From contig CBDUTJ010000008.1 in the NCBI GenBank assembly GCA_965370415.1, forward strand, positions 9,010 to 73,009: a DNA stretch of 64,000 nucleotides, written 5' to 3'. Source of the stretch: an uncultured bacterium. Lineage in GTDB: Bacteria; Cloacimonadota; Cloacimonadia; Cloacimonadales; TCS61. The notes beneath the pieces are model-generated. The model saw nothing but the letters and a program-made list of their open reading frames with translations, did not search any database and was not told the DNA's origin. The position numbers were made by a program, and so were the translations under genes. Below, piece after piece: positions 47,093 to 47,332 of the stretch (the stretch's first letter is position 1; each line of letters begins with the position of its first letter).

Positions 47093-47332
47093 TTATTGCT
47101 CCCTCAAAAAGTCATATTTCAGCCCACTAGACCCTTCACCCCTGCCCGTAACAACCCGCTTGCCGAACCAAAAATAGGTCTCGCCCCCGACCCAACGTAC
47201 CCGCGGGTCTGTCAACTGCACCTTAAGCCCGACCCTGGGCACACTTTCTTCATTGATCCATTTTGACCTGTCACTTTTAAGAAACCATGAACGCGGCACT
47301 ATCCCCTGAGGCAGGCCATTCTCATTTTTCAT
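47093..47332 (-). CDS. Giant-operon gene 2 of 7: 79-aa protein, free-standing copy of the gene-7 C-terminal module
   Basis: 27/53 ungapped identities with residues 728-780 of the 785-aa protein, including GEGSSGLK[YF]DFL. 7-nt gap after gene 1. Confidence 0.75.
   Translation of the reverse strand: MKNENGLPQGIVPRSWFLKSDRSKWINEESVPRVGLKVQLTDPRVRWVGGETYFWFGKRVVTGRGEGSSGLKYDFLREQ

Follow-up and report, generated by a model that had tools for sequence, protein, structure and literature searches.

The operon described here raises a simple question: why does its second gene encode, as a free-standing protein of 79 amino acids, the module in which the large protein encoded by its last gene ends? We define "the window" as the whole stretch of DNA that was analysed, 64 kb of a 2.8-Mb genome. 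All genes of the operon lie on the minus strand and are transcribed in the order NUDIX-membrane, s79, p882, DUF6603, p1092, p1626, p785. The operon is 100% identical in three other assemblies. The features referred to below are these:

47340-48695, minus strand: NUDIX and membrane-domain protein, 451 aa, first gene of the operon
47093-47332, minus strand: s79, a free-standing ORF of 79 aa whose homology is to the final 81 residues of p785-family proteins
47100-47250: GC-rich patch within s79, 53-62% GC in 60-nt windows
44424-47072, minus strand: p882, 882 aa, an ORFan filling the variable slot, immediately 5' of DUF6603
40954-44421, minus strand: DUF6603 protein, 1155 aa, core cassette gene (PF20248, E 3e-129)
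37679-40957, minus strand: p1092, 1092 aa, core cassette gene
32756-37636, minus strand: p1626, 1626 aa, core cassette gene
30381-32738, minus strand: p785, 785 aa, last core gene of the cassette, from a family without a name or Pfam model
30399-30641, minus strand: resident fused module, p785 residues 700-780

The s79 gene starts 7 nt past the stop of the NUDIX gene, and p882 starts 20 nt past the stop of s79. The ATG of s79 is preceded at 3 nt by the weak SD-like sequence AAGGGA, and the host uses SD sequences; p882 is preceded only by the weak SD-like GGGAAA. The body of p785, roughly 500-700 N-terminal amino acids, is absent from s79. Its ATG is preceded, at a distance of 8 codons, by a stop codon, and the protein terminates 3 residues past the module motif. 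Searches of Pfam, NCBIfam, PHROGs and PADLOC recognised only NUDIX and DUF6603 among the operon proteins. In the related loci inspected, the NUDIX-membrane gene did not turn up among the cassette genes.

The initial annotation had described s79 as a free-standing copy of the C-terminal module of p785, and its coordinates and sequences proved correct. Residues 24-76 of s79 match p785 residues 728-780 (nt 30399-30557) at 27 of 53 positions without a gap, exactly as claimed, while the best ungapped match of 500 shuffled sequences to the whole of p785 averaged 9.2 identities and never exceeded 12. BLASTP extends the homology over all 79 residues of s79 and residues 700-780 of p785 (E 6e-19, 35/81 identities). 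The second and last genes of the operon do end in the same small, specific domain, and a search of the whole genome found these two copies and no third. One detail of the annotation has to be given up: the match of VPRSW to VPKNW (VP[KR]xW) is not collinear with the BLASTP or family alignment. In the family alignment the s79 segment IVPRSWFLKS aligns to the consensus I-x-P-R-T-R-L-L directly before the module (p785 ~711-720), and not to the VPENWIPF motif, which lies ~35 residues further upstream.

The module is the best conserved stretch of the p785 family, which has more than 1,400 homologues, none named, in many phyla. Its consensus in 60 sequences, xEExVPRxGxxVQLTxQRxRWxDGxTxxWxGRKVxxGRGEGSSGLRFD, has 7 invariant and 12 near-invariant columns; with its tail variants the family signature ends in GRGEGSSGL[RK][FY]D. 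All 7 invariant columns are retained in s79, as are all near-invariant ones except one (Q26 -> P), and s79 scores 97.6 bits against the module profile (E 9e-28). Searched with phmmer and no filters against 1.84 billion representatives, s79 gave 890 matches, of which 150 were listed. Nearly all of these 150 are the C-terminal end of ~560-925-aa proteins, or shorter fragments, and many of them also appear in the list of p785 homologues. The conserved columns and the C-terminal place in p785-type proteins indicate that the module is a specific domain; nearly all of the listed matches are p785-type C-termini or fragments, and the earlier concern that it might be a low-complexity Gly-Ser tail found in unrelated proteins does not apply.

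An AlphaFold2 model of p785 built from 108 sequences (pLDDT 83.4, pTM 0.79) predicts the module as a beta-hairpin (740-750/756-766) with short flanking strands at a pLDDT of ~90. It ends in a Gly-rich GKGEGSSGLKFD loop that is less ordered in the model and highly conserved. A profile search of PDB sequences with the module gave chance matches only, and a structure search of PDB and BFVD with the p785 model gave no match at E below 0.001. When s79 is modelled alone only the hairpin is recovered, at low confidence (pLDDT 70, pTM 0.30); this poor fold suggests that the module would need the p785 body, or another partner, to fold.

Other parts of p785 were also distinctive in the model. Residues 1-63 (window 32550-32738) are predicted to be disordered (pLDDT ~40) and hold many of the most conserved positions of the protein (W24, R26, R30, R32, D46, W49, Q54, W55, Q56 and E59); they are likely to be a partner-binding segment. 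A long helical bundle is predicted at residues 478-653 (window 30780-31305), and because most homologues have ~570-690 aa and align to ~60% of the query, it is probably an insertion specific to a 770-795-aa subfamily. Two family members, P0223 (925 aa) and P0249 (768 aa), carry 338 and 170 extra residues beyond GEGSSGLRFD, with no Pfam match in the extensions. These two may have the tail fused to a component from downstream and, since they extend 170-340 residues past the module, suggest that the p785 tail can serve as an attachment point.

To place the operon among its relatives, loci were collected by scanning one genome per species and the JGI metagenomes for the motif RGEGSSGL, which yielded 160 loci (80 from genomes and 80 from metagenomes). 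In those long enough to show their neighbourhood, co-oriented DUF6603, p1092-like, p1626-like and p785-like genes recur in three orders: DUF6603-p1092-p1626-p785 (order A, that of the window), p1626-p785-[variable]-DUF6603-p1092 (order B) and p1626-p785-p1092-[variable]-DUF6603 (order C). The variable gene occupies the slot directly upstream of DUF6603, where we found PhoD-type metallophosphatase-like proteins, a peptidoglycan-binding-like motif, an HExxH metalloprotease and an M15-like peptidase; the M15 assignment is a Pfam match, and the others were read from sequence motifs only. A literature search found no paper naming DUF6603 or PF20248.

Several order-B variable proteins (L017:10179-12908, L019:10162-13104, L115:12003-14786, L117:7886-9784, L010:307-2184 and L058:349-3672) share an N-terminal domain of ~350 aa with a conserved LLRFPKSNI and have unlike C-termini, among them an M15-like peptidase, a peptidoglycan-binding-like motif and a metallophosphatase-like region. 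A shared N-terminal domain with differing C-termini is an architecture typical of polymorphic effectors. The variable protein of the window, p882, does not appear to belong to this set (phmmer and jackhmmer found nothing, and the hhalign probability was 0.1), and no homologue of it was found among 5.8 billion protein clusters or in the 160 related loci. In the closest available relative, a Spirochaetales MAG, the slot upstream of DUF6603 holds two small HExxH metalloprotease-like ORFs of 279 and 307 aa (L108:697-2487); a partial ORF without annotation precedes them, where the contig ends. The cassettes of L043 (an Acidobacteriota MAG), L026, L111 and L169 are split into many short ORFs, by sequencing errors or by genuine decay.

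The cassette is horizontally acquired by its present host. None of 60 relatives of the host, drawn from its genus, family and order, was found to carry it, and an integrase module adjoins it in the window.

Free copies of the module are rare. The initial annotation had raised the idea that the module might always occur both fused and free in such operons; this is not so, as a second copy was present in none of 29 other carrier genomes. Thirteen of the carriers were reached through the loci, cover orders A, B and C, include the Spirochaetales MAG (p785 45% identical), and have exactly one copy each. The other 16 are the carriers among 201 Cyclobacteriaceae genomes, all single-copy with the module in a 566-706-aa frame. 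Phylum-wide samples of two other phyla contained almost no carriers.

Most short proteins in the match list are contig-end fragments or frameshifted p785 genes. P0174 was set aside as a contig-end fragment, and P0211 and P0254 as frameshifted p785 genes. The genuine 5'-truncated forms are few. Apart from s79 they comprise a 91-aa ORF shared by the marine contigs L010-12 and a small number of solitary tails. The three marine contigs are at least 99.9% identical, and their ORF stands at the operon head upstream of a variable gene, which in L010 it overlaps by 11 nt. That variable gene is orthologous (E 9e-51) to the gene behind the full-length p785 of L117, and the small ORF matches its neighbours in composition.

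The solitary tails have a perfectly conserved module and no other cassette gene at their loci: L082:9668-10180 (Ensifer adhaerens ST2), L066:9659-10183 (a Vicinamibacterales MAG), L110:1345-1632, L136:159-419 and L183:2959-3702. Within the whole genomes of the first two, the tail is the sole copy of the module. The solitary tails are either remnants of lost cassettes or a case of unexplained retention. The 5' boundaries of homology in s79, L010, L110, L136 and L066 fall within ~16 codons of one another, around SIQLQRAxM, unlike that of L183, which keeps 247 residues. Given the ascertainment biases, this clustering is no more than suggestive of the last 80-95 residues having been selected as a free unit.

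The base composition of s79 is foreign to the operon. No other 240-nt segment of the window (mean 34.9%, sd 5.1) is as rich in GC as s79, at 51.2% (GC3 57.5%), and the value drops steeply to 25-32% at the ORF's 3' terminus. The GC3 of its neighbours is 19.6% (p882) and 28.5% (NUDIX). The codon-usage score of s79 is 4.9 sd below those of 79-codon samples from the operon and under all 2,000 of them, whereas the resident p785 module is host-like in codon usage, with a GC3 of 41.5%. Amino acid composition was rejected as the cause of the high GC of s79, given that difference in GC3 between the two copies and the finding that in 73 fused genes the GC3 of the module equals that of the remaining gene. 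RNA structure was rejected as the cause of the GC-rich patch (fold z-score 0.43, no Rfam match). The genes of the nearest relatives of s79, at 51-53% GC and 54% GC3 with a module GC3 of 60%, do match it.

Two implications follow from these values. Because s79 has 51% GC and p882 30%, the two did not arrive jointly in one simple event; p882 has the lowest GC content of the operon (29.7%) and lies beside the highest-GC patch of the window. The unameliorated composition of s79 also suggests that it arrived recently, and an intact ORF is on that account weak evidence for selection.

Phylogeny places s79 outside its own operon. In a tree of 98 modules it falls inside a 24-row clade of fused modules (support 98/86), whose members with readable gene order are all of order B or C, with cassette genes after p785. 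Its identity to fused modules of the order-B type, p1626-p785-[variable]-DUF6603, is 55-59%, and the nearest rows are P0122 and P0123 (58-59%). The resident p785 module lies in a sister clade and is 43% identical to s79, which is thus closer to fused copies in other phyla than to the copy at the end of its operon. The free forms do not group together in the tree. A search for a donor or close relative of s79 came up empty, both in 5.8 billion protein clusters (similar length) and in JGI metagenome contigs, and its best DNA identity to any sequence found is 62-64%.

The position of s79 agrees with this placement. P0122 and P0123 come from operons of the form p1626-p785-[927 or 632 aa]-DUF6603-p1092, in which the variable gene starts 0-10 nt past p785. 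In the window, s79 stands where the 3' end of p785 lies in order B, 20 nt before p882, which is followed by DUF6603. The 91-aa ORF of L010 holds the equivalent place before its own variable gene. Moreover, Met1 of s79 is the Met of the LQRAxM motif, which is present in 95 of 108 fused proteins (88%); since it is this conserved residue, the start codon was inherited, not invented. A general internal start that would release a free tail from all p785 genes was considered and rejected, as SD-like cores precede the Met in 2 of 98 fused genes, the background frequency being 11.5%.

The reading that we favour, and consider reasonably probable, is that s79 is a horizontally acquired and recently imported orphan 3' stub, left behind by rearrangement of the cassette and possibly translated. 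It would be the 5'-truncated 3' end of a p785-family gene that belonged to some other DUF6603 cassette, not to the one at whose head it now stands, and would most likely derive from an operon of order p1626-p785-[variable gene]-DUF6603-p1092 in an organism of ~50% GC. Phylogeny, position, composition and divergence from the resident copy, as four independent lines, converge on this origin. Order A is a circular permutation of order B, and duplication followed by deletion would leave such a stub; either a permutation of this kind or a recombination event where p785 meets the variable gene may account for it. Deletion of most of an upstream cassette would be an alternative route to the same stub. 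Rare as it is, s79 is not a standard subunit, and on this reading it would lack a dedicated function; the resident p785 keeps its own module. The stub may well be translated, because it is co-oriented, tightly packed and provided with an inherited conserved Met.

Several observations count against the stub reading. The ORF is intact, retains the conserved module residues apart from Q26, has a start codon and an SD-like sequence, and lies 7 and 20 nt from its neighbours. The marine contigs L010-12 hold a second, independent free form of the same layout that is compositionally at home. The 5' ends of the stubs are clustered near SIQLQRAxM, no donor sequence was found, and the GC contrast between s79 and p882 indicates a history of more than one event.

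Some of these observations would also suit the possible but improbable alternative that s79 is a functional free-standing docking or adaptor subunit, presenting the hairpin and Gly-rich loop of the p785 tail to a common partner or serving as a tether for p882. The intact ORF, its motif fully conserved except at Q26, and its tight packing behind an SD-like sequence are what such a subunit would show, but with a foreign composition that points to recent arrival, intactness says little about selection. The independent free form in L010-12 and the clustered 5' boundaries of several stubs likewise fit a recurring subunit, yet free copies are missing from all 29 other carriers and the free forms are scattered in the tree. 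The extensions of P0223 and P0249 make the tail a candidate attachment point, and in the model of p785 the module is confidently folded and ends in a flexible, highly conserved loop; the fold predicted for s79 alone is poor. As p882 is without homologues, a co-occurrence of the two cannot be shown. The initial annotation had seen in the free copy a designed part of the system, for docking, as a plug or as a targeting tag, and the comparative data (rarity, scatter in the tree, foreign composition, weak fold alone) do not support that.

In a more general form of this idea, which we offer tentatively and think rather unlikely, the last 80-95 residues of p785 would be an autonomous assembly or docking unit that has been freed repeatedly at SIQLQRAxM and that here acts in trans, for example by loading p882 into a machine made up of the four giant proteins.

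Quite improbable is a role as a translational-coupling leader, in which translation of p882 would need ribosomes terminating at a p785-type frame and the peptide itself would be irrelevant. The full-length p785 and the variable gene do overlap or lie 13 nt or less apart in 4 of 5 loci, and the 91-aa ORF of L010 overlaps the next gene, but the gap in the window, at 20 nt, is long for strict coupling, even if only the weak GGGAAA precedes p882. Cassettes whose first gene is the variable one or DUF6603 mostly do without a stub, and coupling would not require the conservation of the peptide motif.

We give very little credence to s79 as a silent cassette, a recombination substrate for replacing the C-terminal module of p785 in the manner of rhs-CT and cdiA-CT. 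The cassette has a variable slot, and s79 is like those orphan modules that retain conserved main-gene sequence (PMC4927057). The two copies, however, are 55% identical in DNA (32% at third positions) and share no exact stretch longer than 9 nt, which falls far short of what homologous recombination needs; the stub holds the conserved and not the variable part; and s79 lies 16.5 kb upstream, so that a crossover between it and the resident copy would remove the entire cassette. This last proposal is close to refuted. A recent tandem or segmental duplication of the resident p785 3' end, which the presence of two copies within one operon might suggest, is already refuted by the same DNA divergence, which rules out both recent local duplication and recombination between the copies, by their 43% amino acid identity as against 55-59% to foreign fused copies, and by their opposite codon usage.

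If the orphan-stub reading is right, s79 records in concrete and datable form the reshuffling of a cassette that is widespread and for which no paper naming it was found. The site at which the 3' end of p785 meets the variable gene would be one where pieces of different lineages and GC backgrounds are joined, and the conserved GRGEGSSGL[RK]FD tail would mark the boundary between the constant and variable parts of the cassette. Should the free copy prove to have a function, it would offer a small and tractable tool for identifying what the tail binds, and should the trans-acting reading be true, it would be the first handle on how the cassette recruits its variable component. The case also carries a caution, in that a striking domain repeat within an operon can be something that recombination left behind, not something designed. 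As a footprint of mosaic evolution, s79 does not in itself explain the mechanism of the cassette.

Compared with other DUF6603 cassettes, that of the window has the same four core genes and a variable gene upstream of DUF6603; none of the other carriers examined was found to have a free p785 tail, an ORFan occupying the slot or a head gene of the NUDIX-membrane type. Among known small proteins, GrcA (YfiD) is an autonomous spare part for pyruvate formate-lyase, a mini-protein that copies the C-terminal module of the large enzyme. Like s79, it is a small free protein homologous to the conserved C-terminal module, with a Gly-containing loop, of a large protein whose gene is nearby. Conservation across lineages and a known chemical rationale set GrcA-type proteins apart from s79, which is rare and foreign in composition and whose module is without known chemistry.

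A nearer parallel may be found in the orphan, or displaced, cdiA-CT/cdiI and rhs-CT/rhsI modules, which are read as fossils of past recombination or horizontal transfer and can retain conserved main-gene sequence (PMC4927057; also Koskiniemi et al. 2014, as cited there). In both cases the 3' end of a large conserved gene has lost its 5' part, keeps the orientation of the main locus, has a variable neighbour and sits on a horizontally acquired island with integrase genes. Unlike the orphan modules, s79 lies upstream of the main gene, at the head of the operon, and not downstream; it consists of the conserved module only, with no in-frame variable toxin domain; the gene that follows, p882, is separate, has no known domain, and is not succeeded by an immunity-like gene; and its DNA identity to the resident copy (55%, 9 nt) is too low for recombination. 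The cassette that hosts it is not CDI, Rhs or any described secretion system. By analogy, then, s79 resembles an orphan fossil of this kind, but one that stands outside the CDI and Rhs families.
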